Shown here piece after piece: positions 3,876 through 63,020 of a DNA stretch of 64,000 nt. The notes below the pieces were generated by a model that saw only the letters and a list, made by a program, of their open reading frames with translations, ran no database searches and had not been told where the DNA came from. Both the position numbers and the translations under genes were made by a program. Positions within the stretch are counted from its first letter, which is position 1. Every line of letters begins with the position of its first letter. This DNA comes from Minisyncoccota bacterium (GTDB lineage Bacteria > Patescibacteriota > Minisyncoccia > Phycocordibacterales > UBA9973): positions 6,839-70,838 of the forward strand of contig DATKGV010000004.1 of the NCBI GenBank assembly GCA_035510575.1, read 5' to 3'.

Positions 3876-4748
3876 TTAAATAATCTCTCCCTTAAACACA
3901 AAAGTAGCGGGGCCACGGAGGATGACGTGGCCTTTGTCGTTTTGAGATAAGAATAATTTACCACCCGGAAATTCCAAAGTTACCTCACTTTGCGTTAGGT
4001 CTTGCCTAACGCTGTTTTTTGTAAGTATGGAATAAACTGCGCAAGCGCCAGTGCCACAGGCAAGAGTGGCACCACAACCGCGCTCCCAGACCTTCACTTT
4101 GTAATAATTATCCCCGCCTGCTCCCGAACTATCGTGAGGGCGGGCAGGATTTACTTTTTCAACTAATTCCATATTTATTTTGTTTGGGAAATTTTTATCA
4201 TTCTCAATTTTAGGACCAATTATTGAAAGGTTATATTTATTTAAATCATCAACAAGTCCGACAGCATGTGGATTACCCATTGATACAAATTCAAATAAAA
4301 TATTTTCAAGTTCCATTGGATTAGCAGGGAAGTCGTTATGAGCAAATACAGGCGCACCCATATCAACAGAATATGTCCCATCTTTATGGCATGTAATTTT
4401 CTTTATGCCAGCTCGCGTATCAATAAATAATTCTTCTTTAAATTGTGAGGTCTGTTCTAAGAAGAATTTCGCCACGCAACGCACCCCATTACCGCACATT
4501 TCAGCTGTTGTTCCATCGGAATTATAATAATTCATAAAACAATCAGCTTTATCCGATGATTCAACTAAAATTACACCATCAGCGCCTATTCCTAAATGCC
4601 TATCACATAAAAACTTTATATATTCAGGCGCAAAATTAACCACACCATTCATGTTATTTATCATGATGAAATCATTGCCGGCGCCGTGATATTTATAGAA
4701 ATTAATCATATATCTTTTATTATACCAATAAAATGGTATAATTATCAC
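3876..4748 (-). CDS. dapF: diaminopimelate epimerase, carrying two in-frame palindromic insertions
   Basis: FYKYHGAGNDFI and CGNGVRCVA DapF motifs, plus ERGCGATLACGTGACA. Contains element A1 (4112-4148, encodes PARPHDSSGAGGD) and B1 (3992-4012, encodes VRQDLTQ). Confidence 0.8.
   Translation of the reverse strand: MIIIPFYWYNKRYMINFYKYHGAGNDFIMINNMNGVVNFAPEYIKFLCDRHLGIGADGVILVESSDKADCFMNYYNSDGTTAEMCGNGVRCVAKFFLEQTSQFKEELFIDTRAGIKKITCHKDGTYSVDMGAPVFAHNDFPANPMELENILFEFVSMGNPHAVGLVDDLNKYNLSIIGPKIENDKNFPNKINMELVEKVNPARPHDSSGAGGDNYYKVKVWERGCGATLACGTGACAVYSILTKNSVRQDLTQSEVTLEFPGGKLFLSQNDKGHVILRGPATFVFKGEII
3992..4012. repeat. family B palindrome B1 (gcgttaggtcttgcctaacgc), in-frame in dapF
   Basis: Stem gcgttagg / cctaacgc around loop tcttgc. 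Encodes VRQDLTQ. Confidence 0.7.
4112..4148. repeat. GC-rich hairpin element A1 (family A), in-frame in dapF
   Basis: ccccgcctgctcccgaactatcgtgagggcgggcagg. Near-identical to 41008-41043 and the reverse complement of 21064-21103. Confidence 0.75.
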
Positions 4749-4750
4749 AT

Positions 4751-5182
4751 ATGAAAATCTACATTGGAGCAGATCATGCAGGATATGAATTAAAAGAAAA
4801 TCTTAAAACTTATTTAACAGGACTTGGTTTAGAGGTTATTGATAAGGGCGCATTTGAATTAAATAATAATGACGATTATCCTGATTTTATTACACCAGTA
4901 GCGGAAGCAGTAGCCAAAGAAGAAAGTTTCGGTGTTATTATCGGTGGTTCAGGCCAAGGTGAAGCTATGTGTGCCAATCGGGTAGCAGGCATTAGAGCTT
5001 CAGTTTATTATGGTCATTCTTTAGATATAATAAAAATAACAAGAGAGCATAATAATGCCAACATCCTTTCATTAGGCGCACGATTTATAACAATCGATGA
5101 AGCAAAAGAAGCTATCAAATTATTTATTGATACTAAATTTAGCGGTGACGAAAGGCACATTCGTAGAATTAGGAAATTTTAA
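4751..5182 (+). CDS. rpiB: ribose-5-phosphate isomerase B
   Basis: MKIYIGADHAGYELKENL... plus GGSGQGEAMCANR, typical of RpiB/LacAB. Confidence 0.85.
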   Translation: MKIYIGADHAGYELKENLKTYLTGLGLEVIDKGAFELNNNDDYPDFITPVAEAVAKEESFGVIIGGSGQGEAMCANRVAGIRASVYYGHSLDIIKITREHNNANILSLGARFITIDEAKEAIKLFIDTKFSGDERHIRRIRKF

Positions 5183-5185
5183 ATT

Positions 5186-5872: not shown

Positions 5873-5873
5873 A

Positions 5874-6743: not shown

Positions 6744-6748
6744 ACATT

Positions 6749-8739: not shown

Positions 8740-8745
8740 ATGACC

Positions 8746-8800
8746 CTTATTATACCCCGTAGTGAAATTTTTAACAAAATTCTACTACAGGGGATATCAC
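8746..8800. repeat. 55-bp conserved palindromic element G1 in a divergent promoter region (second copy at 35541-35594)
   Basis: cttattataccccgtagtgaaatttttaacaaaattctactacaggggatatcac. About 90 percent identical to the copy upstream of the zinc-ribbon ORF. Internal inverted repeat cccgtagt / actacaggg. Confidence 0.6.
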
Positions 8801-8820
8801 AATATGATATAATATTTAAT

Positions 8821-9684: not shown

Positions 9685-9835
9685 TATAAAAAAATCCAGT
9701 AAACTTTAAAAGGTTTACTGGATTAACTCATAGAGAGGTAGGGTTCTTGTTCTCTTAGATTTACATTCGGCGGATTAGCATAAAGCGAATCGGCTATAAT
9801 AAATCGGAATTATCCCTTTAGGAAGAAATTAATCT

Positions 9836-19186: not shown

Positions 19187-20202
19187 ATCTGTCCGTTTTT
19201 AGTCCACAAAGCCGAAACAGATTCGCCGTTATGGAGATTATCAATAGTTTGAGCTATGAGCTTGGCAACGGAGATAAATACAATGCTTTTCCCCGCTTTT
19301 TGAACAGCCGACACGAAGTCATTACCGACAGGAACCGTATCGGTAACCCACACAGATGAGAATTCAGATTGAATTATATTTTCAACAGTTTCCTCGCTAA
19401 AATCCGCATGAGTCGCAATCGCGCAATAATTCACGATTTGAGTTTGCTCTTTATGGAGAGCATCGCCGGCTTGGCGAAGCGTGGTAAAAGTTGAAATCAA
19501 ATCATCAACGAATATGACCGTATCTATATTTTCCGAAATATCGCCCTGGGTATAGACCTTCATGGCTCTGGTCTTGCCGGTTCTGGGGTCTCTGTCTTTG
19601 TCGGTAATAATTAGCGGCACCCTGAGTTCTTCGGCAATCTTGCGGGAATATTTTGATCCGCCCATATCGCCGGAAGCGACGGCAACATTTGAAAGGTCTG
19701 AGAACTTAGATCTTATATTCTCAATAATAAGTTTCGTAGTGTCAACATTTTCCATTGGCGGATTGCTCGTGCAACTGGCCGGATTATGAAGCTTGCAGAC
19801 AACCATGCGATCAACTCCCGCGGTCTTAAGCAGTTCCGGGAAAAAGTCGCTTAGCTTGGGCTGCCTTAATTCTCGATTTTCTACATCTTGCCTCTGATGA
19901 AGAAGCTTAGGCATCACTGCAGTTATCTTGTGCGGCTGGCCATGCTTCACGGCTCTGGCAAAACGCAAATAATCCACAATCCATTTGTCTGTTTCTCCCC
20001 CATTTAAGCTGGTAAAAATTATGTAGACATCCTTGCCTCGCACAGTTATATTCTGATGAGAAATTCTTTCGCCATTTGGGAAAGATTTAGTCGTATGCGG
20101 AGATAAAGGAACTTCAAGTAATTTGGCGATTTCTTCGCCCAATCTAGTATTACTGCCATAAACAAATATCTGCTTTGGGTAAGGGTTTAGATTATTTATC
20201 AT
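19183..20202 (-). CDS. prs: ribose-phosphate pyrophosphokinase family protein
   Basis: Two PRTase-like halves. FPNGE ... and VIFVDDLISTFTTL PRPP-binding-loop-like motif. Confidence 0.65.
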   Translation of the reverse strand: MINNLNPYPKQIFVYGSNTRLGEEIAKLLEVPLSPHTTKSFPNGERISHQNITVRGKDVYIIFTSLNGGETDKWIVDYLRFARAVKHGQPHKITAVMPKLLHQRQDVENRELRQPKLSDFFPELLKTAGVDRMVVCKLHNPASCTSNPPMENVDTTKLIIENIRSKFSDLSNVAVASGDMGGSKYSRKIAEELRVPLIITDKDRDPRTGKTRAMKVYTQGDISENIDTVIFVDDLISTFTTLRQAGDALHKEQTQIVNYCAIATHADFSEETVENIIQSEFSSVWVTDTVPVGNDFVSAVQKAGKSIVFISVAKLIAQTIDNLHNGESVSALWTKNGQI

Positions 20203-20675: not shown

Positions 20676-20718
20676 GCGCTTCATTTTTTTGTTTAAATAA
20701 TGAAGCTTACAACATTTG

Positions 20719-20790
20719 TGACCTCACTGGGAATCGCACCCAGCTTCCAAGCTTGAGAAGCTTGTGTCCTAACTGATAGACGATGAGGCC
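20719..20790 (-). tRNA. tRNA-Glu (anticodon CUC)
   Basis: Minus-strand cloverleaf: GGCCTCA / TC / GTCT-ATCAGTTA-GGAC / A / CAAGC-TTCTCAA-GCTTG / GAAG / CTGGG-TGCGATT-CCCAG / TGAGGTC / A. Anticodon CTC. G54 in the T-loop is atypical. No encoded CCA. Confidence 0.65.
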
Positions 20791-21032
20791 AATATTTTTA
20801 TTTTATTTTTTATATACTTTCTACCAAAACCACTTTTGAAATATTTTTCTTTTTTCCTCGCATCCTGTATGTTATCCGTATTTTCATAATAAATCAATTC
20901 AAAAGGTGCTCTAGACCTTGTTGATCTTACTGTTTTATTATTATGATTTTCTAATCTTTTCTCAAGATTATTAGTAAACCCATAATATAGCTTATTATCT
21001 ATTTTACTTTTTATAACGTATACAAAGTACAT
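20769..21032 (-). CDS. GIY-YIG nuclease superfamily protein (YhbQ/UPF0213-like)
   Basis: MYFVYVIKSKIDNKLYYGFTNNLEKRLENHN is a GIY-YIG motif. The last 7 codons are read from the tRNA-Glu 5' end. The longer track ORF (to 21113) has an N-terminus encoded by a duplicated tRNA fragment plus hairpin element A2. Confidence 0.6.
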   Translation of the reverse strand: MYFVYVIKSKIDNKLYYGFTNNLEKRLENHNNKTVRSTRSRAPFELIYYENTDNIQDARKKEKYFKSGFGRKYIKNKIKILASSSIS

Positions 21033-21050
21033 ATTTTGATGTCCTAACTG

Positions 21051-21115
21051 ATACCTGCCCGCCCTCACGAAAGCTCGTTCGGGAGCAGGCGGGGACGATG
21101 AGGCCATTGACACTA
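21051..21115 (-). repeat. partial duplicate of tRNA-Glu nucleotides 1-25, interrupted by the 40-nt GC-rich hairpin element A2 (21064-21103)
   Basis: gtcctaactgata + cctgcccgccctcacgaaagctcgttcgggagcaggcggg + gacgatgaggcc. The flanking 25 nt are identical to 20766-20790. Confidence 0.7.
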
Positions 21116-24885: not shown

Positions 24886-25790
24886 ATTTTTTCTATTATC
24901 CTTAATTTGGCGCTGCGGGAGCGCGGATTCTCGCGCAATTCATCATCGCTCGGTGTTATGGGTTTTTTGGTGATAATATTCGCATATCCTTTTTGTTTTA
25001 AATCAACGAAGGCGCGCTTGACTATGCGATCCTCCAAGCTGTGAAAAGTTATAATTGCCATGCGTCCATTGTCTCCAAGCAGGTTAAATCCTTTTTCTAT
25101 AGCTTTTTCCAGATTTACGAGTTCGCTGTTCGTTGCTATGCGAAGGGCTTGGAAAGTCCTTGTTGCCGGATGGATTTTCATCCTCTTATAGCTCCTGCCC
25201 ACGGCTTCATCGATTATCTTCACTAAATCAAATGTGGTCTTTATGGGCTTTTTTTTGCGGGCATCTATAATGGCCTTGGCAATCTTGCGGGAATATTTCT
25301 CTTCACCGAAGCCGTATATGATATCAGCTAGTGTTTTCTCTTCCCACGTATTCACGATATCGCGGGCCGTTAAGTCATCATCAGTTGGATCTTTTTTCAT
25401 CGTCATCAGAAGCGGTTCATCTTTTAAAAAAGAGAATCCCCTGCCCGCCTCTTCCAGCTGGAATGAACTGATGCCAAGATCAAGCAATATTCTGTCTGCA
25501 TGAATGATATTCAACTCATGAAGAATTTTATCCATGTCTTGAAAGCCAGCCGTCCGCAAAATTGCATCGTGCGGAAGATCGCCTACTAATGATTTGAAGC
25601 GGCCGACTGCATCGGAATCCAGATCAAGGCCGATAATCTTAATGCCTGAACCGAAACGGCGGATTATTTCAAAACTATGCCCCCCGCCGCCAAGCGTTCC
25701 GTCAACGACAATATCGCCGGACTTTATCTTAAGCCCGTCAATCGATTCGTTTTTCAGTACTGAAATATGCGTCATATTATTAAAGAACAC
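24882..25790 (-). CDS. rsmH: 16S rRNA (cytosine1402-N4)-methyltransferase
   Basis: HISVLKNESIDGL ... DGTLGGGGHS. Confidence 0.85.
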   Translation of the reverse strand: MFFNNMTHISVLKNESIDGLKIKSGDIVVDGTLGGGGHSFEIIRRFGSGIKIIGLDLDSDAVGRFKSLVGDLPHDAILRTAGFQDMDKILHELNIIHADRILLDLGISSFQLEEAGRGFSFLKDEPLLMTMKKDPTDDDLTARDIVNTWEEKTLADIIYGFGEEKYSRKIAKAIIDARKKKPIKTTFDLVKIIDEAVGRSYKRMKIHPATRTFQALRIATNSELVNLEKAIEKGFNLLGDNGRMAIITFHSLEDRIVKRAFVDLKQKGYANIITKKPITPSDDELRENPRSRSAKLRIIEKI

Positions 25791-28631: not shown

Positions 28632-29663
28632 TTATTTAAATGTAGAATTAATTTCTTTTTCTAACTTCTTCGCATCCCCATGCCTCAACATTCCTAAATA
28701 GGATTGTATACTTTCCTCTTTGTAATTGTTCTTTTTCAAATTCCTAAACATTCTTTTCTTGGTCGCTGTCCTTAAAACTCTGTGATACGGGAATTGAACC
28801 CAACCCAAGAAATCCACACCGGAAGCAAGGGTCTTGATATACAGCTTGTCCGGATGAAGTTGTAGTTTTAAATTATTATTTAAGAATTGTGAGATTTTTG
28901 GTATAAGATTCTCAAGATATGATTTGTTTTCTGAAAGAATCACAAAATCATCGGCATATCTGATATAGTATTTTACTTTCAATACATGCTTCATATATTG
29001 GTCAAATTCGTTCATATAGACATTAACTAGAAGTTGAGAAGTCAGATTGCCAAGAGGAAGACCTCGTTTGCTTGATGCTACAAACTCTGCACGTGCAGAG
29101 TTTGTAGCATTTTTGGTATAAAAGCTGTCGATGATGTTTGATAAAAGGATGTGAGTATCAGAATCGTGCATATGCACAGAAATGATACTCTTTAATATTT
29201 CGTGATTAATATTGGCGAAGAATTTGCGTATGTCGCATTTTAAAATCCAGCAAGTTTTAGTATTATTCTTTGAAACTTTTCTTGAGAAATCACGGAAGCG
29301 ATTTATGGCTTTATGAGTTCCCTTACCTATTCGGCATGAATACGAATCATAGATGAATTTCCTATCAAAATATGGGTAGAGTATTCTATATATTGCATGA
29401 TGAAGTAACCTATCTCTAACACTTGCTTTGTGAATATCGCGAGGTTTGGGGTCATTGATTTTAAAAGCTTTATATTCACCATGCTTGTAGGTTTTATTTT
29501 TTAAATCTTGATGCAAATTAAAAATATTATCCATTAATTGCAATTGGAATTTCTGCACATCTTCTTTTTGTTTTTTATCTTTTATAAATTCTTGCCATGC
29601 TAAAAGCAAATTCTCTATGGATGTGATAGAATCAAAACTATGAATAGCACCCCCCCCCCGCAC
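28632..29663 (-). CDS. diversity-generating retroelement reverse transcriptase
   Basis: RT motifs through YADDFVIL. Motif 4 reads LPLGNLTSQLLVNVYMNEFDQYM, the DGR-specific SQ form rather than QGxxxSP. GTG start immediately followed by a G10 tract. Confidence 0.75.
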   Translation of the reverse strand: MRGGGAIHSFDSITSIENLLLAWQEFIKDKKQKEDVQKFQLQLMDNIFNLHQDLKNKTYKHGEYKAFKINDPKPRDIHKASVRDRLLHHAIYRILYPYFDRKFIYDSYSCRIGKGTHKAINRFRDFSRKVSKNNTKTCWILKCDIRKFFANINHEILKSIISVHMHDSDTHILLSNIIDSFYTKNATNSARAEFVASSKRGLPLGNLTSQLLVNVYMNEFDQYMKHVLKVKYYIRYADDFVILSENKSYLENLIPKISQFLNNNLKLQLHPDKLYIKTLASGVDFLGWVQFPYHRVLRTATKKRMFRNLKKNNYKEESIQSYLGMLRHGDAKKLEKEINSTFK

Positions 29664-29721
29664 AATTCAAACCGCTTCGGTCATTAACCGAATCAAGGAA
29701 TCTTTCAGTATTTGGTGCAGT

Positions 29722-30030
29722 TTGATTGTTCCTCATATGCCAAGAACAGCCAGATACACGATTGGCGCAAGAATTGAAAACCATTTCCTTGATCTGCTTG
29801 AACTTGTGTATAAAGCATACTACGCTTCATTTGAAAATAAAAATGAAAAAATTATTGAATGCATAAGTAAAAATGATTTAATTAAATACTTGCTTCAAAT
29901 CGCTTGGGAAAATAAACTGCTCAAAGAAAAACCATATATGGAACTATCTCAAAAACTGCAAGAAGTCGGTAAAATACTTGGCGGGTGGAAAAAAGGAATT
30001 GAAAGTAAAATAAAAACTCCTGCCAAGTGA
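29722..30030 (+). CDS. Avd-like four-helix-bundle accessory protein (bAvd / 23S-IVS protein family)
   Basis: 102 aa helical protein ending ...KLQEVGKILGGWKKGI, closely resembling the bAvd C-terminus (EVGRILGSWIARV). Oriented opposite to the RT and TR. Confidence 0.5.
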   Translation: MIVPHMPRTARYTIGARIENHFLDLLELVYKAYYASFENKNEKIIECISKNDLIKYLLQIAWENKLLKEKPYMELSQKLQEVGKILGGWKKGIESKIKTPAK

Positions 30031-30046
30031 CAGGAGAAAAATGTTT

Positions 30047-30161
30047 GTTTCGAAAGAAAGAACTGTTGCCGGCATTCCACTTGTTCTTGGGATCAAACTT
30101 GTTCACGTTCACGTTCGGACCATCAGCATTGTGCCACACGTTCACGTTGCAAAGCTCGCCT
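30047..30161 (-). repeat. DGR template repeat (TR)
   Basis: 115 nt, 87 percent identical to 30484-30600. All roughly 15 mismatches are T on the plus strand (A on the minus strand) in this copy against G/A/C in the other. Its translation shows the classic AAC-rich pattern (NVWHNADGPNVNVNKFDPKNKWNAGN). Confidence 0.7.
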
Positions 30162-30413
30162 TTTGTGATAAAACCATCTATGACACCGGAGTTTAAATCA
30201 TAAACTCCTGAATATTATTCGGGACATCAAAGTCCGCCAATTTTATCACCAACAAATAATTTTATTTTTTGGAAAGTAATAAAATACTCTTGTATAAGAT
30301 ATCTCCGACACAATTCTGATTTTATTAAAATCAAAACAATGTATTTCAAGCCAAGGCCGGAAATTACCGCATTGTTCTGAATCGATCATACCATTTTCAA
30401 AATAAAAAAACTC

Positions 30414-35540: not shown

Positions 35541-35594
35541 CTTATTATACCCTGTAGTGAATTTTTAACAAAATCTACTACGGGGTTATACCAC
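35541..35594. repeat. 55-bp conserved palindromic element G2 (copy of 8746-8800)
   Basis: cttattataccctgtagtgaatttttaacaaaatctactacggggttataccac. Again sits between divergently transcribed genes, about 45 bp upstream of an ATG. Confidence 0.6.
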
Positions 35595-38706: not shown

Positions 38707-39480
38707 TTATTTTTTATGCAAATAATATTTTCTTTTAGCTTCAGGCAATCTTTCTATTGCGTAGCGGAGCATGGTGCGGGACATGTTTTTAATATTGGAA
38801 TCTAGAAATTTTATGAGTTCTTTTTCAGACACTCTTTTCCCTACTTCGCGAAGCATCCAGCCACAGGCCTTTTTAATCAAGTCGTGTTTGTCTTTCATCA
38901 AGATTTTTACAATCTTAAAAGTCCATTTATACCCGCCCGCATCGCCTTGTGAAGCATGGCGGGCAGGTTCCCCTTTGTAAATAAAAGCAAACGTAGAAAT
39001 AATTGCAATTCTTTTCTCCCAAAGATTTTTTGAATTGGCAAGTTTCTCAAGGACGGTCCTTGGGGAAACTCTCTTAATGACCGTCCTTTTGTACAAATAA
39101 TCCCCAACAATATAACCAGCTGATAAATCAACCAAATCCCAATTATTTATATATTTCGTATGCGATAAATAAAAATCACAAATCTGCTTACCCCATAGGT
39201 CTTGCCTATGGGGTTGTCTAGTTTTATATTTATGAACTAATATTAAAAGCGCTACTAGTCGTGCCTCATGATATTTATTTTTTATAAGTTTTGAAACATC
39301 AGAAAGCGCAAGCTCGCCGTATTTTACGGCGAGCTTGCGCGATTCCGGAACTGCAATTCCCAAGAAAAAATCGCCTTTTCCATATTCCCCTTTGCCTGTC
39401 TTAAAAAATCCGGATAATATGCGAGCTTTCTCCGGATTGGCTTTCACTTTTAATTCCTTGAGAAGATCATACAAAAGCAT
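38707..39480 (-). CDS. DNA alkylation repair protein (AlkD/AlkC HEAT-repeat family), with two in-frame palindromic insertions
   Basis: DNA_alkylation family pattern (WMLREVGK ..., NWDLVD). Contains A3 (38932-38967, encodes EPARHASQGDAGG) and B2 (39191-39213, encodes PHRQDLWG). Confidence 0.65.
   Translation of the reverse strand: MLLYDLLKELKVKANPEKARILSGFFKTGKGEYGKGDFFLGIAVPESRKLAVKYGELALSDVSKLIKNKYHEARLVALLILVHKYKTRQPHRQDLWGKQICDFYLSHTKYINNWDLVDLSAGYIVGDYLYKRTVIKRVSPRTVLEKLANSKNLWEKRIAIISTFAFIYKGEPARHASQGDAGGYKWTFKIVKILMKDKHDLIKKACGWMLREVGKRVSEKELIKFLDSNIKNMSRTMLRYAIERLPEAKRKYYLHKK
38932..38967. repeat. GC-rich hairpin element A3 (family A subtype ii), in-frame in alkD-like gene
   Basis: cccgcccgcatcgccttgtgaagcatggcgggcagg. 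Shares its termini and loop core with 45232-45268. Confidence 0.7.
39191..39213. repeat. family B palindrome B2 (ccccataggtcttgcctatgggg), in-frame in alkD-like gene
   Basis: Stem ccccatagg / cctatgggg, loop tcttgc. Encodes PHRQDLWG. Confidence 0.7.
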
Positions 39481-39944: not shown

Positions 39945-41339
<1,395 letters not shown>

Positions 41340-41358: not shown

Positions 41359-42339
41359 TTAATTCACGCTTGCCATGCCTGCGCTTATTTCCGATATCTC
41401 TTGAGTAATGCCGGCTTGGCGGGCCTTATTAAACACCAGAGTCAAATCGCTTATCATCTCGCCTGCAGCATCCGTCGCATTCTTCATGGCGACCATTCTG
41501 GACGATTGCTCGGAAGCGCTTGATTCAAGCGTCATTTGATAAATCTGAGTTCGGATAATCTTTTCAGCCAATGATTCCACAAGCGCCACTGCATCTCCTT
41601 CAAATATATACGGCGTTTCTGAATTTTCTCTCTTTTCAGACCCCTCCTCAGTCCTCCCCTTATCAAGGGGAGGAAGAACTTCATTGATTGTGTCAATCAA
41701 TTCTTTTATTTCCTGTTTTGATATCGGCAGAAGCTTGCGCATATTTGCTTTCTGATTTAGCGCCGATATGAAATCAGTATATGCCACAAAAATATCCTTA
41801 TATTCCCCTTTTTTATATTCGTCAACAATAAGCTTCGAGAGAGGAACAATATCAAAAAGAGTTTTATTGTCGGGAATATCAACAAATGAAGCTATAACAT
41901 TCTGCCCGGTACGGCGCATAGCGCCATCGCCTTTTTTGCCAACAGTTATGATATCAACTTTTATTTCCTTCCCCGACACCTGGTGTAGGGGAGTTTCCCC
42001 GACACCAGGTGTAGGGGAAATTTTCGTTTTTAACATACTAATAGCTTTTTTTATAACTTGAGTATTATAGGCCCCGCAAAGTCCGGTATTGGAAGTTATG
42101 AGAATAAGCAAAGTTTTGCCTTCTTTTTTTTCCATAAAAAATGGGTGGTTTATATCATCCAACCGCACAGAAAGCGAAGTTAAAACATTCCAAGAATAAG
42201 TCGCATATAATCTGGAAGCAAGAGCGCTCGAGACCGCGCGCCTCATCTTGGAAGCCGCCACGAGCTCCATGGCTTTCGTGATTTTTTTCGTGTTCTTCAC
42301 GCTTTTTATTCGCTGTTTGATTTCTTTTGTGCTTGCCAT
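41359..42339 (-). CDS. atpG: F1 ATP synthase gamma subunit, with three in-frame palindromic insertions
   Basis: N- and C-terminal gamma helices (MASTKEIKQRIKSVKNTKKITKAMELVAASKMRRA ... ). Contains D1 (41653-41673) and tandem E1/E2 (41971-42017). Confidence 0.8.
   Translation of the reverse strand: MASTKEIKQRIKSVKNTKKITKAMELVAASKMRRAVSSALASRLYATYSWNVLTSLSVRLDDINHPFFMEKKEGKTLLILITSNTGLCGAYNTQVIKKAISMLKTKISPTPGVGETPLHQVSGKEIKVDIITVGKKGDGAMRRTGQNVIASFVDIPDNKTLFDIVPLSKLIVDEYKKGEYKDIFVAYTDFISALNQKANMRKLLPISKQEIKELIDTINEVLPPLDKGRTEEGSEKRENSETPYIFEGDAVALVESLAEKIIRTQIYQMTLESSASEQSSRMVAMKNATDAAGEMISDLTLVFNKARQAGITQEISEISAGMASVN
41653..41673. repeat. perfect palindrome D1 cctcccctt-atca-aggggagg, in-frame in atpG
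   Basis: Read directly; encodes part of ...LPPLDKGRTEEG... Confidence 0.65.
41971..42017. repeat. tandem duplicated palindromes E1/E2 (ccccgacacctggtgtagggg, ccccgacaccaggtgtagggg), in-frame in atpG
   Basis: Two 21-nt near-palindromes 5 nt apart. Encode ...SPTPGVGETPLHQVSG... Confidence 0.65.
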
Positions 42340-45080: not shown

Positions 45081-45120
45081 TTATTAATAATATCGACTTT
45101 AATTTTATAAAAATAACTCC

Positions 45121-45200
45121 ATAAAAGATTGTTTTTACAAAAGTCCTCGGATCTCCTCGCGATTACACTCGGCCAGACTTTCCTAAAAACAATCTTTTAT
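45121..45200. repeat. about 80-nt palindromic element C1, between atpE and the atpB stop
   Basis: ataaaagattgtttttac aaaagtcctcggatctcctcgcgattacactcggccagac tttcctaaaaacaatcttttat. The outer arms are inverted repeats. The core recurs twice inside uvrC. Confidence 0.65.
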
Positions 45201-46150
45201 TACGTTACCATCATTTCCTTTTTTACATGTTCCCCGCCTGCATTGTCTTGCAAAGCATGGCGGGCAGGATGCTCTTCATGTTCATCATGATCTTGCGAAG
45301 CTATTGTAAAGTACACAAGCACTAAGATCGCAAAAATGAATGCCTGTATCACTCCCACAAAGATCTCAAGGAACAAGAACGGTATAGGAAGACCATATGC
45401 CAAAAGAGCGCTCATAGATACCAGAAGCACTTCGCCGGCAAAGACGTTCCCGAATAATCGGAACGAGAGCGAAGCAACCTTGGCAAATTCACCAATAAGC
45501 TCAAGCAAGCCCACAAAGAAAGTGACTGGAGCGACAATGATTATCATCGGATCTCGGCGAATATTGGTGAAAATGCCGCCAAGCGCCTTTATATTAACAT
45601 ATTTATTGAATGTTTTCCAAGCTCCGATGGAAACTATGCCGAATATATTGGCGCTTATAACAGACATTAATGATAAAGCCAAAGTTGTATTTATATCTGC
45701 CGTACCGCTTCGAATAAATGGCACAAAGGACAGGCCTTCACCGCCCTTCTCAATAAGGCCCAAGCCGCCTAATGGCAATATGCCCAGCCAATTATTTACA
45801 AGCACAAACATGAAAATTGAGAATGCCAATGGAAAAACTTTATTGGAAATCTTTCTGCTCCCGGTAACCTGATCACAAAGAGAAAGAGCGCCTTCAAGCA
45901 TGATTTCAAAAAAATTCTGAATGCCTTTCGGAATTTCTTTTAATTTAAAACGTATTCCCATAACCAATATAATTATAAAAAGAACGGCAGCCCAACTGGT
46001 TAAAAGCGCATTGGTAACGGGAAGAGGCCCGATATGCGCGACTGGCTCTGCATAAAGAGTAACTTCATGCGAAACTTCTGTTTGATTTTCATTAATTTGA
46101 TTTTCCATTTTTCTCTTTTTTTTCTGTCTGCGCAGGCAGGTCCTTTTCAA
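45200..46150 (-). CDS. atpB: Fo ATP synthase a subunit, with C-terminal in-frame hairpin insertion
   Basis: Polytopic; conserved R in ...FRLFGNVFAGE... True start is probably MENQ (46108). The C-terminal ...HPARHALQDNAGGEH... is encoded by element A5 (45232-45268). Confidence 0.8.
   Translation of the reverse strand: MKRTCLRRQKKKRKMENQINENQTEVSHEVTLYAEPVAHIGPLPVTNALLTSWAAVLFIIILVMGIRFKLKEIPKGIQNFFEIMLEGALSLCDQVTGSRKISNKVFPLAFSIFMFVLVNNWLGILPLGGLGLIEKGGEGLSFVPFIRSGTADINTTLALSLMSVISANIFGIVSIGAWKTFNKYVNIKALGGIFTNIRRDPMIIIVAPVTFFVGLLELIGEFAKVASLSFRLFGNVFAGEVLLVSMSALLAYGLPIPFLFLEIFVGVIQAFIFAILVLVYFTIASQDHDEHEEHPARHALQDNAGGEHVKKEMMVT
45232..45268. repeat. GC-rich hairpin element A5 (family A subtype ii), in-frame at the atpB C-terminus
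   Basis: ccccgcctgcattgtcttgcaaagcatggcgggcagg. Confidence 0.7.
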
Positions 46151-49486: not shown

Positions 49487-49951
49487 CTACTGTGAAAGCT
49501 GTGGAATGAGAGTTTTAATGCCGAATGTATTAGAGAAAACCCCAACCAATCCCCACATACTTATCATTACGAACAAAGCAATCAAACCCCATATCATATA
49601 GCTTTTCCCGGACTTGCGTTTCTCTTCATTGTCGGGATTTAGGAAATACTTGATTATTCCCCAAATAAATGCGGCTGTAGCGAGAGTGAATAAAAACGGT
49701 ACCACTGATTTTATTAGCGTACAGCTGAAAAAATTGAAAACATTGCCTATACTTGTAAAACTTATATTGCTGCAAACATCTGGATTTTGTATGCCTGTAT
49801 TCACATACATATTGCCAGTAGTACCACCAGGACAATCGGCCTCACCCGGACATATAGCTCTCACAGTAGAAAAAGGTGGCATTGTGACTGAAAAAACAAA
49901 AAGTATTGAAAGCGATAAAAATACAGTTATTGTTTTATTTACTATATTCAT
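49487..49951 (-). CDS. pilin-like double-TM small protein, paralog 3
   Basis: Signal peptide, Cys-rich ectodomain (CPGEADCPGG), then IWGIIKYFLNPDNEEKRKSGKSYMIWGLIALFVMI. Confidence 0.4.
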   Translation of the reverse strand: MNIVNKTITVFLSLSILFVFSVTMPPFSTVRAICPGEADCPGGTTGNMYVNTGIQNPDVCSNISFTSIGNVFNFFSCTLIKSVVPFLFTLATAAFIWGIIKYFLNPDNEEKRKSGKSYMIWGLIALFVMISMWGLVGVFSNTFGIKTLIPQLSQ

Positions 49952-50414
49952 AAAATATATTATGTCGTGCTTTTAATCTGATCGACCGTTCCGTGCTTTT
50001 AATCTGATCGACCGTTCCTTTAATGGCGTTCGCTATGACAAATGAGCCCAAGAGCAATGCCGCGCCTATCAAGGTGTACATGAGCGTCTTTTTCGCCTTG
50101 GTAAGTTCTTCCGGATTGCCTCGCGCTTTGACAAAAAGGAAACCGCTATAAATGATAGCCAGCGTGACTATCGGCACCCCGACAACAAGGACAATATTGA
50201 GAATAGCTTCAATGAAAGCAGGAAGAGTGGTAAGAGAAGGACCTAATGGGTTATTAATCTGAGTTTTTACTTGGACGCCAGGTATTGTTCCGCCTTCTGC
50301 GCTAATAAATATTACGGGCATAAGAAGAGAGAAACCTATAATAAAAATGAAGCTATATTTTGCAAAAGTTGAGAGAATGCTGTATTTATTTTTCTTTAAA
50401 ATTTTCATAATCAT
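49935..50414 (-). CDS. pilin-like double-TM small protein, paralog 4
   Basis: Signal/anchor, ectodomain, then IIYSGFLFVKARGNPEELTKAKKTLMYTLIGAALLLG. Confidence 0.4.
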   Translation of the reverse strand: MIMKILKKNKYSILSTFAKYSFIFIIGFSLLMPVIFISAEGGTIPGVQVKTQINNPLGPSLTTLPAFIEAILNIVLVVGVPIVTLAIIYSGFLFVKARGNPEELTKAKKTLMYTLIGAALLLGSFVIANAIKGTVDQIKSTERSIRLKARHNIFYEYSK

Positions 50415-50430
50415 AAAATATTAATAATAA

Positions 50431-50907
50431 TTAACTTGCAAGAAACATTGGTCCAGTAAAGCCAAGCGTTACGAGAATCGTCTTGACTACAAGCCACGCC
50501 GCGAGAGCTATGACAAAACCGATAACCACATTTTTTATGATGCTTTTGGCCTTGGTAACTTTCTCAGAGCTGCCACCCGAGAATATCATCAGAAATCCAG
50601 CATAGACCAAAATCAAAGCAACAAGCGGTGTAACAATGGTAATTAAAAGAAAATTTATGACATTGTTTATTAAAGTCATCAGAGAGTCAAAATTACAAGG
50701 ATTTTTATATACTTGTTCATATACTGGTTGATTTTTGCTATCTAAAAGAGGCTTACCATTTTGATCATAAAGAGGTTTACCATTGATAAGCGCGCCAGTA
50801 TTACAATCAGGAACTATGGGATTCGCCGCATAAGCTACACTAAAAGATAAAGCTGGAGTTAAGACAATTGCGCATCCCACTATTAAAATAAATATCTTTT
50901 TTTTCAT
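50431..50907 (-). CDS. pilin-like double-TM small protein, paralog 5
   Basis: Signal peptide (cleavage after AYA), Cys-containing ectodomain, then LVYAGFLMIFSGGSSEKVTKAKSIIKNVVIGFVIALAAW. Confidence 0.4.
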   Translation of the reverse strand: MKKKIFILIVGCAIVLTPALSFSVAYAANPIVPDCNTGALINGKPLYDQNGKPLLDSKNQPVYEQVYKNPCNFDSLMTLINNVINFLLITIVTPLVALILVYAGFLMIFSGGSSEKVTKAKSIIKNVVIGFVIALAAWLVVKTILVTLGFTGPMFLAS

Positions 50908-52214: not shown

Positions 52215-52755
52215 ACTTGAAGATTATACCATAATGATTAATGCTTGCCTCAATATTTTCCAGAAACTTAAACCCGCGCTTAACGAAAAATTCTTTGGCT
52301 TTTTCGGAAGTAATGATCCTGTCTTTGCCCAAAGTCCGACTTAGGGCTTGCCCTAAGTCGGACTTTGGGTTATCTTCCCAGTCAATCAATAAGATCTTGC
52401 CGCCTTTTTTTAAAACACGCTTAGCTTCATCTATCAGGCCGAGCTTGTCTTCCGCCTGGGATAAGACATTTGAAATAATAACTGCATCCATGCTTCTATC
52501 GGCTATTTTCGTGCCGCCTGCTCGTTCTATATCGCCCCAAATGCAATCAATATTTGAAATTTTTCGCTGAATCAGATCTTTTTCAAGATTTTTCACAAGA
52601 TCCTTTTGCGCTTCAATTGCATAGACCTTGCCTGTATGGCCGACTCGCGCGCCAGCCGCTTTTGAATAAAATCCGGTTCCAGCGCCGAAATCAGCAACAC
52701 GCATACCTTCGTAAAGTCCAAGTCGGGCGACAATTTTATCGGGGTTCACAAACAT
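52207..52755 (-). CDS. class I SAM-dependent methyltransferase, with in-frame 42-nt palindromic insertion
   Basis: VADFGAGTGFYS motif I. Perfect palindrome cccaaagtccgacttagggcttgccctaagtcggactttggg (52328-52369) encodes ...NPKSDLGQALSRTLG... Confidence 0.7.
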   Translation of the reverse strand: MFVNPDKIVARLGLYEGMRVADFGAGTGFYSKAAGARVGHTGKVYAIEAQKDLVKNLEKDLIQRKISNIDCIWGDIERAGGTKIADRSMDAVIISNVLSQAEDKLGLIDEAKRVLKKGGKILLIDWEDNPKSDLGQALSRTLGKDRIITSEKAKEFFVKRGFKFLENIEASINHYGIIFKYE

Positions 52756-56654: not shown

Positions 56655-56746
56655 TGATAGCTAAAAGTCAACCGTTGCAAAGAGCTTAGATATATTGTAT
56701 ATTCTACACGTTATAAGCCCAGCTGTGGATAACCCTCTTTGCCTGT

Positions 56747-57940: not shown

Positions 57941-57948
57941 ATAATATA

Positions 57949-57989
57949 AAACTCGTTAGGAACTCGTTAGGTCTTGCCTAACGAGTTTT
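57949..57989. repeat. family B palindrome (aaactcgttagg aactcgttaggtcttgcctaacgagttt) overlapping the ddl stop codon; likely a bidirectional terminator between convergent genes
   Basis: Stem actcgttagg / cctaacgagt with loop tcttgc, the same loop as at 3992-4012 and 39191-39213. The ddl TAG stop lies inside the stem. Confidence 0.6.
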
Positions 57990-58910: not shown

Positions 58911-58914
58911 ACTT

Positions 58915-60276
58915 TTATTTTAGCATATTTTTACGGCTTTTATGCCTATAGAAAGCAATTGCAAATCTATGCGACTCGCCGTTGGCAAGCAAGATGGATT
59001 TCTTATGAAGCTTAATTATTTGTTCATCGCCGATTATAGCTTTAGCTTTATGCTTGTCATTTTTAACAACAGCAACTATTGGAATATCAAATTGATAACG
59101 ATTAAGCACTTTTTTGGCGACATTTATCTGAGCAATACTGCCATCCATAACTACAAGATTGGGAATCCCCCATTCAAGATGATGGAGTCGGCGAGACAAA
59201 ACTTCTTCAAGGGCGCCAGTATCATTTGAATGCGTTTGAGTACTTATAATGAATTTCCTGTACTCATTTTTATTTGATTTATTATTTTCAACAACTGTCA
59301 TAACGCCAACCATATTCTTGCCAGACATATGAGCAATATCATAAGCTTCTATCCTAAATGAAGCTATAAAATGATTTCCAGAATGGTCTGGCCGAGCGTA
59401 ATCGCGAGGAGATCCGAGGACCTTTTGGAAATCATTTTCTAGCGAAATATCTTCTTTTATAAGAGCCACATCATTTATGTGTTCTAAGGCGAAAATTCTT
59501 TTCTTAACCTCATTGGCCTTTTCAAATTCTTTTTTCTTTGCATAAGAAAGCATTTCCTTCTTAAAATTTTGAATTATCTTTTTCTTTTTGCCTTGAAAGA
59601 AAAGATTTAAATTGATAATATTTTTTTTATATTGGTTTAGTGAAGCAGAAAAAGAGTTTTCAAAATGGTCTGGCCGAGCCGAAGGCGAAGGAGATCCGAG
59701 GACCTTTTGAAAACTCTTTTTCTGCGAAATATTACTAATTTCTGGTGTTAAACCTAATTGTTTATAAAATTCATAATTTTGCTTCTTGCTGGAACTTGCA
59801 TCAATATACGGGAAAATCCTGCGAATTATCTTCATTGCTTCGCGAAGCTGCAAGCCATTCGGAAATGGACCGTAGACAGAATTAAAGAAAAGTTTTTCTT
59901 TAATTCTGTCTAGATTTCTCCCCCGCACCACCAAAACTTTCGGTAATTCTTCCCTAGTTATACAAACATAATTAAAACTTTTATTGTCTTTTTCTTTTGT
60001 ATTATATTTCGGCTGATATTTTTTTATTAAGTTCGCTTCAAGAATAATAGCTTCCAAAACAGAATCGGTTTCCTGCCATTTTATGCTGTCTGCTTGCATA
60101 ATCATATCCACAAGCAATGGTCCGCGAGTGGCTATCAAATCCTTGCCAAAATAGCTCTTTACTCTATCTCGTAAAGAAGTAGCTTTACCTGTATATAAAA
60201 GAGTTTTCTCTTTATAAAAGAAATAAACACCAGGTTTATCAGGAATTTTATATTTTTTTAAATCTTGACTTTTCAT
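58915..60276 (-). CDS. uvrC: excinuclease ABC subunit C (short form lacking C-terminal HhH), with two in-frame copies of element C
   Basis: N-terminal GIY-YIG (PGVYFFYKEKTLLYTGKATSLRDR), UvrB-interacting helix (EFEKANEVKKRIFALEHI), C-terminal RNaseH-like endonuclease (DGSIAQ ... ESHRFAIAFYR). The repeated FQKVLGSP..ARPDH segments are encoded by C2 (59397-59440) and C3 (59655-59710). Confidence 0.8.
   Translation of the reverse strand: MKSQDLKKYKIPDKPGVYFFYKEKTLLYTGKATSLRDRVKSYFGKDLIATRGPLLVDMIMQADSIKWQETDSVLEAIILEANLIKKYQPKYNTKEKDNKSFNYVCITREELPKVLVVRGRNLDRIKEKLFFNSVYGPFPNGLQLREAMKIIRRIFPYIDASSSKKQNYEFYKQLGLTPEISNISQKKSFQKVLGSPSPSARPDHFENSFSASLNQYKKNIINLNLFFQGKKKKIIQNFKKEMLSYAKKKEFEKANEVKKRIFALEHINDVALIKEDISLENDFQKVLGSPRDYARPDHSGNHFIASFRIEAYDIAHMSGKNMVGVMTVVENNKSNKNEYRKFIISTQTHSNDTGALEEVLSRRLHHLEWGIPNLVVMDGSIAQINVAKKVLNRYQFDIPIVAVVKNDKHKAKAIIGDEQIIKLHKKSILLANGESHRFAIAFYRHKSRKNMLK
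59397..59440. repeat. element C2 core (reverse complement of C1 core), in-frame in uvrC
   Basis: aatggtctggccgagcgtaatcgcgaggagatccgaggacctttt, flanked by its own inverted repeat aaatgatttcc / ggaaatcattt. Confidence 0.65.
59655..59710. repeat. element C3 core, in-frame in uvrC
   Basis: aatggtctggccgagccgaaggcgaaggagatccgaggaccttttg, flanked by the inverted repeat aaaaagagttttc / gaaaactcttttt. Confidence 0.65.
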
Positions 60277-60347
60277 GTTTATTTCCTCTTTAACACTTTC
60301 TTCAAATACCCCGAAGGAAAGAGTACTTCCTACGGGGCAAGTTTTCC

Positions 60348-63020
60348 CTATTTTTTCAAAACCCTTTTTAGATATTTACCGGTATATGAATTTTTATTAC
60401 CTGCCACTTCTTCAGGTGTTCCACGAGCGACAATTTTACCGCCACCAAGACCGCCTTCAGGCCCAATATCTATAATATAATCAGAGTTTTTTATGATATC
60501 CATATTATGTTCAATAATAACAACAGTATTCCCTTTATTCACAAGCTTATTTAAGACCTCTAAAAGTTTCGCCACATCATCATAATGCAATCCGACTGTC
60601 GGCTCGTCCAAAAGATAAATGGTTTTTTCCAGATGCGGACGGTACAGTTCCGAAGAAATTTTCACGCGCTGAGCTTCCCCGCCGGAAAGCGTTGTCGCCG
60701 ATTGTCCAAGCTTTATATATCCAAGTCCGACATCCATAAGAGTATTCAAGCGGTCATAGATTGCCGGTATGTCTTCAAAAAATTTTACGGCTTCTTCGAC
60801 AGTCATTTGGAGAATTTCGTAAATATTCTTCTTTTTGTATTTAACTGTCAGTGTTTCCTTATCGAAACGTTTGCCCAGACAGACATCGCAAGTCACATAA
60901 ACAGTCGGCAAGAAATGCATTTCCACCGCCACTTCGCCGTTGCCTTCGCAGGCCTCGCAGCGCCCGCCTTTGACATTGAAAGAAAAGCGATTTGATTTCC
61001 AGCCGCGCAAGCGGGCTTCCTCGCTTCCCGCAAATAAATCACGCATATGAGTAAAAGATCCTGTATAAGTGGCAATATTCGAGCGTGGCGTGCGGCCTAT
61101 CGGCGACTGATCAATCAATATCGAGCGCGACAAATATTCTGTTCCGGAAAATGAAGCGCAATTATAAACTTTGGCTGTACGATATTTCATATCATATTTG
61201 GCTTGCAGATTTTTATGCAGAATTTCATACATGAAAGAACTCTTGCCTGATCCCGAGACGCCGGTTATCGTAATCATTTTCCCGAGAGGAATTTCCACGT
61301 TAAGATTATTGATATTGAAAATTTTTCCGCCGATTATTTTTAGGGATCCTTTGTTGCTCGTACGACGCTTTTCCGGAATTTCGATTTTCAATTCATTGCG
61401 TAAATAAGCAAGCGTGCGCGACTTTGACGGATTTGTTTTGGCTGTCAGCAACGGCTCTAAATAATCCGAGACAATAACTTGCCCGCCATGAACTCCAGCT
61501 TTCGGCCCTATATCAACTATGTAATCAGATGCATAAATTGTATCTTCATCATGTTCCACTATTATAATCGTGTTGCCGATATCGCGAAGGTTTTCAAGCG
61601 TTTTTATTAATCGGTCGTTATCGCGCTGATGCAACCCTATTGTCGGTTCGTCAAGCACATACAGCGCACCGACAAGTCGAGAGCCGAGCTGGGAGGCCAG
61701 GCGTATGCGCTGGGCTTCTCCGCCAGATAAAGTATTGGCTTTTCTATCAAGCGACAGATAATCAAGCCCGACATTAAGCAAAAATTGGATTCTTGATTCA
61801 ATTTCTTTAATAACAACGTTTGAAATTTCTTTCTCCTGTTCGGTTAATTCAAGCTCAATGAAAAAATCGGCAACTTGCTGTATGGAAAGATGAGTAAGAT
61901 TTACTATATTCATTCCCTTCCCATAGGTCGGACCTATGGTCTTTTGGTTTTTATTATTTGTCCATAGGTCCGACCTATGGGAAGAACCTAAGAAAACATT
62001 TAATGCTTCAGGGCGCAAGCGAGCGCCAAGGCAGGTATCGCAAGGTTCCGTTCCGCCAAAATATTTGGTACCTAAGCCGTTACAAGTTGGACAGGCGCCA
62101 TAGGGAGAATTGAATGAGAATAACCTTGGCTCAATTTCTGGGAAAGAAAAACCGTCTTTCGGGCAAGCAAATTTAGAAGACATTAAAAATTCCTCGTCAG
62201 TAATTTTAATAATAACCAATCCTTCGGATTCAATAAGCGCGCGCTCAATAGCTTCAGCCAAGCGCATTCTGGCATCATCGGGAGCATCTTTAAATTCATG
62301 AATTGCAAAAGAATCCACAAGGACTTCTATATCGTGCTTTTTATTTTTTGAAATATCTATGCGTTCGCGAAGATTCCTGATTTCTCCATCCATGCGCACT
62401 TTAGTAAAACCCTTGTTAAGCAAATCATAAAGCAATTGGTAATATTCCCCCTTGCGCCCGCGAATAACCGGCGAAAGAATATCAACCGGTGTCTCATCCC
62501 ATTTCACACCCAGCACTTCCTTCTTGCCAGATGGCCTTTTGTGTACCTTTATTTTATCAAGAGCAAAATTCATTATTTCTCCACTCGAAAGTTTTTTTAT
62601 TTCATCTCCGCATATCGGGCAATGCGGCCTGCCAATGCGCGCATAAAGCACCCGAAGATAATCGTATATTTCAGTGATAGTAGCAACTGTTGAACGCGGA
62701 TTATTGGAACGCGATTTCTGGTCAATGGAAATTGCCGGAGAAAGGCCGGTAATCTCATCGACATCCGGCTTAGGCATTTGATTCAAAAATTGGCGGGCAT
62801 AAGCGGAAAGCGATTCCACATAGCGGCGCTGGCCTTCGGCAAAAATAGTATCAAAAGCAAGCGAGCTCTTTCCCGATCCCGATATGCCGGTAATAACCAC
62901 CATTTTATTGCGCGGCATTTCAACATCTATATTTTTCAAATTGTGCGTCCTAGCGCCTTTGATTATTATTTTACTTGCCCCGCCTAGGCGTGGGTCTGTG
63001 TTTTTATCTAATTTGTTCAT
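60348..63020 (-). CDS. uvrA: excinuclease ABC subunit A, with tandem in-frame palindromic insertions
   Basis: Two ABC ATPase modules ([24 protein letters not shown]) and zinc fingers. An extra segment ...[25 protein letters not shown]... coincides with palindromes 61921-61939 and 61962-61980. Confidence 0.9.
61921..61980. repeat. two tandem family B-variant perfect palindromes (ccataggtcggacctatgg and ccataggtccgacctatgg), in-frame in uvrA
   Basis: Separated by a 22-nt AT-rich spacer. Together they add about 24 residues after the second zinc finger. Confidence 0.7.

Follow-up and report, generated by a model that had tools for sequence, protein, structure and literature searches.

A 64,000-nucleotide (nt) stretch of contig DATKGV010000004.1, from a metagenome-assembled genome (MAG) of Candidatus Paceibacterota in the Candidate Phyla Radiation (CPR), carries about 17 GC-rich hairpin repeats, 14 of which lie in frame within nine genes. 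These genes encode DapF, an AlkD-like protein, AtpD, AtpG, AtpB, UvrC, UvrA, a methyltransferase and a Ddl-like protein, the last of which takes its stop codon from the repeat. We refer to the whole stretch as the window. The repeats probably represent several families of non-autonomous mobile hairpin elements, akin to repetitive extragenic palindromes (REPs), Rickettsia palindromic elements (RPEs) and miniature transposable elements with inverted repeats (MITEs), that have colonised coding regions here and in many related CPR genomes. CPR bacteria have tiny, gene-dense genomes in which little mobile DNA is usually expected. The window has a GC content of 39.6% and about 85% of its bases fall within open reading frames (ORFs); roughly one of its genes in seven bears a hairpin insert that looks translated, and each coding copy leaves the reading frame open.

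Elements were detected by self-comparison of the window and by hairpin scans. An earlier interpretation made from the letters of the window (the sequence-only reading) had proposed palindromes inside conserved genes, and these were found where it placed them and in excess of chance: CCCGCCTGC occurs 4 times against 0.29 expected, and there are 9 strong GC-rich hairpins against ~1.4 in shuffled sequence. Hairpin density is 14 per 100 kb in the window and 3.5 in non-CPR loci of similar GC content, and long ORFs contain 8 of the 9 window hairpins compared with 2 of 17 in those loci, where the hairpins are mostly intergenic and are probably terminators. Across the CPR loci ~50% of GC-rich hairpins are inside ORFs, versus 12% in the non-CPR controls. 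Therefore, the phenomenon is widespread in the lineage, and the window is a strong instance of it. In an Rfam scan of the window, only two tRNAs reached the gathering threshold and the elements matched no curated RNA family.

The repeats comprise three multi-copy families (A, B and C) plus several singletons; their fold energies range from -15 to -44 kcal/mol. Family A (36 nt, 72% GC, CCTGCCCGCC…GCAGGCGGG) reads CCTGCCCGCC-[18 nt]-CAGGCGGG on the sense strand of its host and folds into a hairpin with an unpaired 4-nt head, CCTG. Its fixed termini, CCTGCCCGC(C)...(G)CAGGCGGG, enclose an exchangeable inner hairpin of 0-22 nt, so that elements of 18, 27, 30, 36, 39 and 40 nt were found, with interiors of 0, 8, 12, 18, 21 or 22 nt. 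The sub-types A1 (interior CTCACGAnnnnTCGGGAG) and A2 (interior beginning ATGCTT) have the same termini. Family B consists of TAGG-N5-CCTA hairpins whose outer stems vary, sometimes paired as an inverted dimer; the stem is CGTTAGG..CCTAACG in B1 and CCCATAGG..CCTATGGG in B2. Family C, of ~92 nt, has long AT-rich terminal stems of 17-21 nt, and thus terminal inverted repeats, around the core GTCCTCGGATCTCC-[variable]-GGCCAGAC. The sequence-only reading had put the elements at about 70% GC, which Family A bears out, and the host at roughly 38%, slightly below the value for the window.

Host genes were identified by Pfam and PDB comparison as those for DapF, an AlkD-like DNA-alkylation repair protein, ATP synthase subunits a, gamma and beta, UvrC, UvrA, a methyltransferase and a Ddl-like ATP-grasp protein (NCBI proteins HUC88463, DapF, through HUC88534, UvrA). 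In seven of them (AtpD, DapF, AlkD-like, AtpG, AtpB, UvrA and UvrC) the inserts are exact, lineage-specific insertions. The A1 copy in AtpD (41008..41043, minus strand) adds exactly 12 residues relative to the PDB F1-beta structures and to the nine closest relatives, all of which lack it; among GTDB species genomes these relatives are Nomurabacteria/Minisyncoccia-type MAGs with 80-87% identity. Cutting exactly 36 nt restores IDD|AGVS and the length of the relatives, and the insert falls in the gap between the blocks that align to PDB 2qe7. In DapF, the A1 copy (4113..4148, minus strand; PARPHDSSGAGG, in frame) corresponds to an exact 12-residue gap in PDB DapF and in 117 of 120 homologues, and the B1 hairpin GCGTTAGGTCTTGCCTAACGC (3992..4012, minus strand; ..VRQDL..) to a gap of 4-5 residues in the homologues. 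An AlphaFold2 model of DapF has a mean predicted local distance difference test (pLDDT) score of 89.7 and drops below 50 solely at residues 189-198, which are the A1 insert, and 236-238, which are the B1 insert. Both lie in loops between secondary-structure elements of the model, and the two inserts are thus predicted to occupy the sole disordered loops of the protein.

The AlkD-like gene carries an A2 copy (38932..38967, minus strand; PARHASQGDAGG, in frame), an exact 12-residue insertion that is missing from the 21 closest homologues inspected among 45 aligned, and a B2 hairpin, ACCCCATAGGTCTTGCCTATGGGGT (39190..39214, minus strand; ..HRQDLW..), that contributes about 5 further residues. The homologues for this alignment came from a representative-library search; no orthologue was present in the related loci and no PDB sequence matched. 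A singleton 40-nt hairpin with 10-bp stems (39049..39088, minus strand) sits in a variable-length loop of the same gene. Another A2 copy encodes PARHALQDNAGG in the C-terminal tail of AtpB, subunit a (45233..45268, minus strand). In AtpG, a singleton 51-nt palindrome made of two 21-nt quasi-palindromic units (41969..42019, minus strand) adds ~17 residues and a singleton 23-nt hairpin (41652..41674, minus strand; VLPPLDKG) adds ~8, compared with relatives of 51-63% identity. The closest relatives lacked the inserts in the AtpG/AtpB comparisons, as they did for AtpD, DapF and the AlkD-like protein.

The two UvrC inserts are Family C copies in two linkers. Site 1 (59641..59732, minus strand) encodes ..FQKVLGSPSPSARPDH.. 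and site 2 (59359..59450, minus strand; core GTCCTCGGATCTCC..GGCCAGAC) encodes ..FQKVLGSPRDYARPDH..; the segments measure ~27 and 20-23 residues, and the linkers of insert-free relatives have a baseline of 7-14 and 18-21 residues. This UvrC (58915-60276, 453 amino acids) matches the GIY-YIG and RNase-H-like endonuclease domains in Pfam, with no match to the UVR motif. In UvrA, a composite 68-nt palindrome (61917..61984, minus strand; -43.8 kcal/mol) consists of two inverted B2 units and an AT-rich spacer. It adds ~23 residues (SSHRSDLW...TIGPTYGK) between RL+PEAL.V.LG and G.NI and displaces no reference residues in the PDB alignment. Separately, the 890-residue UvrA (60348-63020) lacks about 120 residues that are found at positions 305-424 of PDB 9gxk.

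Most of the inserts named in the sequence-only reading hold in this comparison: 11-12 extra residues in AtpD (exactly 12), one at the AtpB C-terminus and two each in DapF, UvrC and the AlkD-like protein, where a further palindrome is not an insertion (see below). It had counted three in AtpG, of which two were recovered and a third was looked for and not found, and two in UvrA, where the insertion is a single composite and a second was not found.

The remaining copies in the window extend the range of sites. A B-like 42-nt perfect palindrome lies in the gene with an S-adenosylmethionine methyltransferase domain (52328..52369, minus strand). A 19-nt B1 copy identical to that in DapF overlaps the 3' end of the Ddl-like gene (57965..57983, minus strand) and provides its TAG stop codon (57978-57983). 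Two copies are non-coding: a 40-nt A1 variant 21 nt upstream of a small GIY-YIG gene (21054..21093, plus strand), and a Family C copy between atpB and atpE (45114..45207, plus strand) that is essentially intergenic, overlapping only the last 8 nt of atpB. A C-like copy is also present between atpD and atpC in L049 (L-numbers denote loci fetched for comparison and P-numbers proteins).

The third palindrome of the AlkD-like gene (39306..39340, minus strand) is a singleton, a perfect GC-rich palindrome of 35 nt with 16-bp stems that encodes SRKLAVKYGELAL. The region is conserved and length-invariant, and the palindrome leaves the protein length unaltered relative to homologues; it is therefore not an insertion and possibly arose by template switching or gene conversion. 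Could all of the palindromes have been made in place by fold-back, template-switching errors of replication, without any mobility? The AlkD palindrome, which substitutes sequence at unchanged length, would fit such an origin, as would the outer stems of Families B and C, which are copy-specific yet complementary, and the several palindromes that are singletons in the window; for the singletons and the non-insertion AlkD palindrome this origin is plausible. As a general account it is very unlikely, since A, B1, B2 and C recur identically in unrelated genes and genomes, both arms are GC-rich in AT-rich host DNA, and both arms are new relative to orthologues.

Direct evidence for gain or loss comes from alleles of closely related strains. 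Clusters at 90% identity hold both filled and empty alleles, and strain pairs polymorphic for the elements are 97-99.9% identical. The BipA/TypA proteins P0265 (filled, L107) and P0266 (empty, L233) share 97% identity and differ by exactly 12 residues. The empty allele has ATTATAAAA|GAGGAAAAT where the filled one has ATTATAAAA|[36 nt]|GAAGAAAAA, with no duplication. Around the insert the two loci have 39 mismatches in ~280 nt (14% divergence, many of the changes synonymous), and outside this patch only 2 in ~2,300 positions. Thus, the element was gained or lost there by homologous recombination, and the patch, found in an uncultivated CPR population, bears the mark of a short tract acquired from a diverged allele. 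Ribosomal protein S5 alleles of one 90%-identity cluster likewise differ by exactly 12 residues without duplication, and target-site duplication is therefore absent from both Family A filled/empty pairs; another S5 allele has a 27-nt A variant at the C-terminus. This polymorphism, together with the in-frame position of the elements in unrelated genes, agrees with the mobile, Rickettsia-like behaviour that the sequence-only reading had ascribed to them.

These alleles also bear on whether the segments are ancestral, functional parts of their hosts, or artefacts of assembly. A C-type UvrC segment and an A-type AtpB-tail segment are common to several lineages, as expected for ancestral parts, and orthologues with the same segment, which the sequence-only reading had named as evidence against insertion, do occur patchily within Paceibacteria (DapF, AtpB and UvrC); this patchiness reflects recurrent gain and recombination rather than ancestry of the segments. 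The closest relatives lack the segments, identical nucleotides occupy unrelated genes, and near-identical strains hold filled and empty alleles. As to artefacts, three projects, one from JGI and two from ENA, assembled this contig stretch independently and recovered identical elements, which excludes the assembly chimeras that the sequence-only reading had raised; another JGI sample contains two more of the window loci (L113, L118). We give this explanation, in either form, almost no credence.

Some sites have received elements of more than one kind. Among 120 DapF and 120 UvrC homologues (61-79% identity), short lineage-specific inserts cluster at few sites and comprise recurring peptide families. 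In loop 2 of DapF the window has B1, L153 has A1 and P0009 has other hairpins, and in the AtpB tail the window has A2 and L006, L123 and L164 have A1. The UvrC linkers contain peptides of family C (FQKVLGSP...ARPDHFEK), E (NSSRFTPEGPYTDKNF), F (KKSSFSSWSGPSSSLIRGPEEKK), G (NRLSLSARSSLRRAHTYDF) and H (NFERSFLEEERSDGKGKSLQN) as well as A and B types, and within one genome both UvrC sites are often filled by the same family. Family C is fused in frame in UvrC and in isoleucyl-tRNA synthetase (IleRS). Variants of A with 30 and 39 nt occupy the same DapF codon boundary as the 36-nt copy of the window, and 18-nt forms that retain only the termini, decay products of the element, occur in UvrC of two genomes.

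Family A1 was surveyed by an exact-pattern scan of JGI/ENA metagenome contigs, which returned 94 copies in 88 stretches and, after removal of duplicates, 77 unique sites. They come from groundwater, peat/wetland, lake sediment and other habitats, at loci of 31-52% GC. At 61 of the 77 sites the element lies in a long ORF in one orientation and one frame (frame 0) and encodes the peptide PARPH[DE]xSGAGG; 7 sites, including the AtpD copy of the window, are in other coding frames, and the remaining 9 are either non-coding or situated in short ORFs or on contig edges. Coding sites thus amount to 68 of 77 (~88%), and one frame is used at 61 of these 68 (binomial p ~1e-39 against uniform use of six frames). 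The frame-0 hosts belong to at least 41 protein families, among them SecA, IleRS, DnaE, TopA, GyrA, RF1, NusA, trigger factor, S5, BipA, RNase J, MurD, PurD, PurL and ClpB. The sequence-only reading had noted that one family yields the same peptide in different hosts, which applies both to the window copies and to the 61 frame-0 sites, and had proposed that the elements tolerate or prefer coding DNA; the survey sharpens this to a preference for one orientation and one frame. When a concatenated A1 peptide was used as a query, 2,882 candidates shared words with it and one gave a scored match.

A looser pattern of A termini in viral contigs showed no frame bias, most of its matches being in GC-richer phages; the A1 bias is therefore not a by-product of stop-free frames. 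IMG/VR contigs L204 (1443), L209 (1759) and L217 (4266), along with L176, L186 and L215, hold elements with family-A termini; a 36-nt IMG/VR copy (interior CCACTCAGTAGTGAGGGG) lies inside a 1,486-residue ORF, on contigs of 39-42% GC. Another IMG/VR element is multi-copy, 33 nt long with TCTGTG flanks, and has no frame bias on contigs of ~53% GC. Hosts of A1 outside the window also carry other inserts: IleRS (L099) has FTQVLGSLGPRPQPDHSQKH, BipA (L107) has GKEARPNDAVGQGF and MurD (L148) has VSPRQGLGGK, all of other families, and trigger factor (L091) has a second A-type insert, PARNASGIADAGG.

The lengths of the coding Family A copies, 18, 27, 30, 36 or 39 nt, are all multiples of three, the copies are free of stop codons, and the sole 40-nt copy is non-coding. 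Chiefly for this reason we think that the inserts are translated and not lost at the RNA level by hairpin-triggered excision, as mini-introns or by translational bypass. CPR rRNA genes carry excised insertions, and the hairpins are very stable throughout, both of which would suit removal. In animals, paired inverted repeats are known to trigger RNA excision (PMC12779559). An excised sequence would need no constraint on its length, frame or flanks, and the coding copies show all three: lengths in threes without stops, a single frame in 61 of 68 cases, and flanks that code for hydrophilic residues. We therefore consider such removal highly improbable.

There are at least two possibilities for the frame bias. 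Frame-0 A1 copies are typically flanked by AAA/AAG/GAA|GAN/GGN, and the motif AAA|GR is found in sense phase 0 in 42% of its occurrences among window genes, with 13% intergenic. Part of the bias, and the figure of ~12% for non-coding sites, could be due to an oriented preference for certain targets; if insertion were purely random and selection came later, more non-coding copies than this would be predicted, and a degree of targeting may therefore be present. AAA|GR is not consistently found at copies outside frame 0, and the flanks are explained equally well by selection for insertions that fall between K and E/D/G codons in hydrophilic loops.

A different view of the same data is that the repeats are cis-acting signals maintained by selection, such as signals for DNA uptake or recombination, or mRNA hairpins at which ribosomes pause or which shield transcripts, and not selfish mobile elements. 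For DNA uptake sequences, too, placement within coding regions is biased in frame. Across genomes of 31-52% GC from many habitats the A1 stems are identical, although the exact-pattern search partly creates this apparent conservation. Element direction tracks the gene, and does so in DapF, where gene direction and GC skew conflict; the polymorphic BipA copy lies within a short imported tract, as it would after transformation. Uptake sequences build up by substitution, whereas comparison with empty alleles shows the copies described here to be clean insertions of 18-40 nt. Their density is low (few copies per 100 kb), many unrelated families occur side by side, and decayed 18-nt remnants and length variants are found. 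On balance, we regard the cis-signal explanation as unlikely.

We therefore return to colonisation by mobile hairpin elements, for which we propose the following course. A copy would enter a new site without target-site duplication and, if coding, would most likely be translated into 6-31 extra hydrophilic, disordered residues in a surface loop or linker. Copies in other frames or in structured parts would be purged by selection, to which an oriented preference for A-rich|G targets may add, and selection and targeting together would yield the strong one-frame bias; their relative shares we infer rather than observe. Once at a site, the element would pass between related strains by short-tract homologous recombination. 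The unpaired CCTG head, the REP-like size and the lack of duplication resemble REPs, with their REP-associated tyrosine transposases (RAYTs), and IS200/IS605-type single-strand transposition, which we suggest, with low confidence, as the likeliest mechanism. By analogy with what has been proposed for REPs, our guess is that a transposase of the HUH/Y1 type that recognises single-strand hairpins could be the mobiliser.

Several observations weigh against this account. No transposase was detected by Pfam in 40 window ORFs. The scarcity of non-coding A1 sites exceeds what random insertion and selection would give. The same DapF and UvrC codon boundaries hold different A variants in different lineages, which could be old insertions with turnover of the interior and not repeated insertion. 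The singletons and the non-insertion AlkD palindrome may stem from template switching instead of mobility. Finally, the association of A1 with a GIY-YIG gene comes from one orthologue pair, as follows.

Among the 40 Pfam-scanned ORFs, the only recombination- or mobility-type matches were a tyrosine recombinase, a reverse transcriptase of a diversity-generating retroelement (DGR) and the small GIY-YIG protein; there was no RAYT gene, and no insertion sequence was seen in the window or the fetched loci, the search not having covered the whole genome. The GIY-YIG gene (20772-21032, minus strand; region 20718-21093) overlaps tRNA-Glu by ~20 nt, and its likely start lies downstream of the A1 element, making the copy at 21054 non-coding. 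Its orthologue in L135 (111-438), 65% identical, has a 36-nt element at the same place in the opposite orientation, and the downstream sequence TATC..TTAGGACATCAAAA is shared. Four other GIY-YIG homologues in the fetched loci have no A1 copy, and we rejected the nuclease as mobiliser; its neighbourhood with A1 is treated as coincidence or a single old insertion.

The tyrosine recombinase (2174-3310; Phage_integrase family, 1.4e-17) is ~600 nt from DapF, and no link to the elements was established. The DGR-like region spans 28632-30950. Its reverse transcriptase ORF (28632-29663, minus strand) matches Pfam RVT_1 (1.8e-25), and a template repeat at ~30030-30170 pairs with a variable repeat at ~30467-30609, at the 3' end of ORF 30414-30950, all mismatches being at adenines of the template copy. 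Nothing connects the reverse transcriptase to the elements, and it was dismissed as their source.

Replication-strand bias was also considered as the cause of element orientation and set aside, on the weak evidence that DapF, the sole informative case, follows its gene and not the GC skew. Near ~14 kb the window switches from plus-strand genes with positive GC skew to minus-strand genes with negative skew, which may mark a replication terminus or origin. Other features of the window are three tandem ORFs (49487-50907) that match a type IV secretion pilin family (PF18895) and two repeat pairs unrelated to the palindromes: an AT-rich, apparently intergenic pair of 33 nt that is 85% identical (8746-8778 / 35541-35573), and an exact 21-nt pair, GGCAATCTTGCGGGAATATTT, inside two different genes (19633-19653 / 25278-25298).

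A bolder version of the proposal, which we offer tentatively and think possible but doubtful, is that Family A is the smallest of all known selfish elements that code for protein: a modular palindrome of 18-40 nt, world-wide in Paceibacterota, whose integration is biased in orientation and effectively in codon phase because it aims at A-rich|G junctions of the coding strand. Most copies would then be born in the harmless frame and would spread by natural transformation and short-tract recombination. If Family A integration is indeed targeted, it would represent a new way in which mobile DNA and essential genes coexist in ultra-small genomes, and it would keep supplying CPR proteins with new surface loops.

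The distinctive points are the small size and modular build of Family A, the occurrence of one 36-nt sequence in dozens of protein families, essential ones among them, across many environments, the extreme frame bias, and direct filled/empty polymorphism with spread by recombination in an uncultivated lineage. In the window and related genomes the hosts include ATP synthase, UvrABC, SecA, tRNA synthetases, DNA polymerase III, gyrase and S5. Such inserts inflate marker-gene alignments, which matters for annotation and phylogenomics, and affect structure models of CPR proteins; in protein evolution they may be a route to new loops. A filled/empty polymorphism with its recombination tract can serve as a marker of gene flow for tracking strains in uncultivated populations. 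Whether in-frame placement arises by targeting or by selection, a question that dates from the work on RPEs, becomes testable with existing metagenomes, metatranscriptomes and metaproteomes.

The sequence-only reading knew of no characterisation of the phenomenon in small, CPR-like genomes, and a full-text literature search, which covered few subscription journals, yielded no description in Patescibacteria/CPR; earlier work is possible. Three known systems are close. Bacterial MITEs with open reading frames include ERIC, the 107-bp form of Correia/NEMIS, YPAL and QMITE (PMC2229807, PMC10969869). Family C resembles them in its long terminal inverted repeats, its length of ~92-100 nt, its single long stem-loop and its in-frame fusion. 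It differs in that no target-site duplication or TA termini could be shown, its boundaries remaining blurred, in that no parent insertion sequence is known for it, and in that the outer stems vary by copy. Family A lacks target-site duplication in its two filled/empty pairs.

Intragenic REPs with GTAG or CGTC tags have been described, with dimers located in uvrA and further repair genes (Di Nocera et al. 2013, PMC3733652); uvrA of Opitutus terrae bears dual REP inserts, and GTAG REP termini often supply stop codons (PMC3733652). Families A and B share with REPs their form as GC-rich imperfect palindromes of 20-40 nt in high copy number, a short unpaired head before the hairpin (CCTG in Family A), the occurrence of monomers and inverted dimers, and a location in repair and replication genes; the stop codon that B1 gives to the Ddl-like gene parallels those from GTAG termini. 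Unlike REPs, they carry no GTAG or CGTC tag, a head is absent from Family B, and no RAYT was seen among the 40 window ORFs scanned. REPs are overwhelmingly extragenic, whereas 68 of 77 A1 sites are coding and 8 of 9 window hairpins lie in ORFs.

For RPEs, our comparison draws on summaries (PMC10969869, PMC2229807) of the original work (Ogata et al. 2000, 2002); these are palindromes of ~105-150 bp in frame in conserved genes, with 19 of 44 RPE-1 copies intragenic. The likeness lies in the in-frame insertion of palindromes into unrelated conserved genes of a small, AT-rich, reduced genome, in a family-specific conserved peptide, in some intergenic copies and in the lack of a known transposase. 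RPE inserts are thought to be placed without disturbing the fold, and the DapF inserts here fall in low-pLDDT loops. Unlike RPEs, the elements belong to another phylum, have no sequence relation to them and lack the CGTC end tag, their ends being CCTG.../...GGG (A), a stem-internal TAGG (B) or AT-rich (C); this separation relies on the described ends and lengths and not on a consensus alignment. Families A and B measure 18-40 nt, and Family C alone comes near to RPEs in size. The build of Family A is modular, its termini being constant and its interior exchangeable; a single element sequence is common to many genomes and habitats, and ~88% of A1 sites are coding compared with the 19 of 44 for RPE-1. 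The likeness to RPEs drawn in the sequence-only reading therefore extends to behaviour and stops short of family membership, as there is no sequence relation or CGTC/GTAG tag and most elements are far shorter. The phenomenon resembles RPEs and intragenic REPs in behaviour but belongs to neither family.

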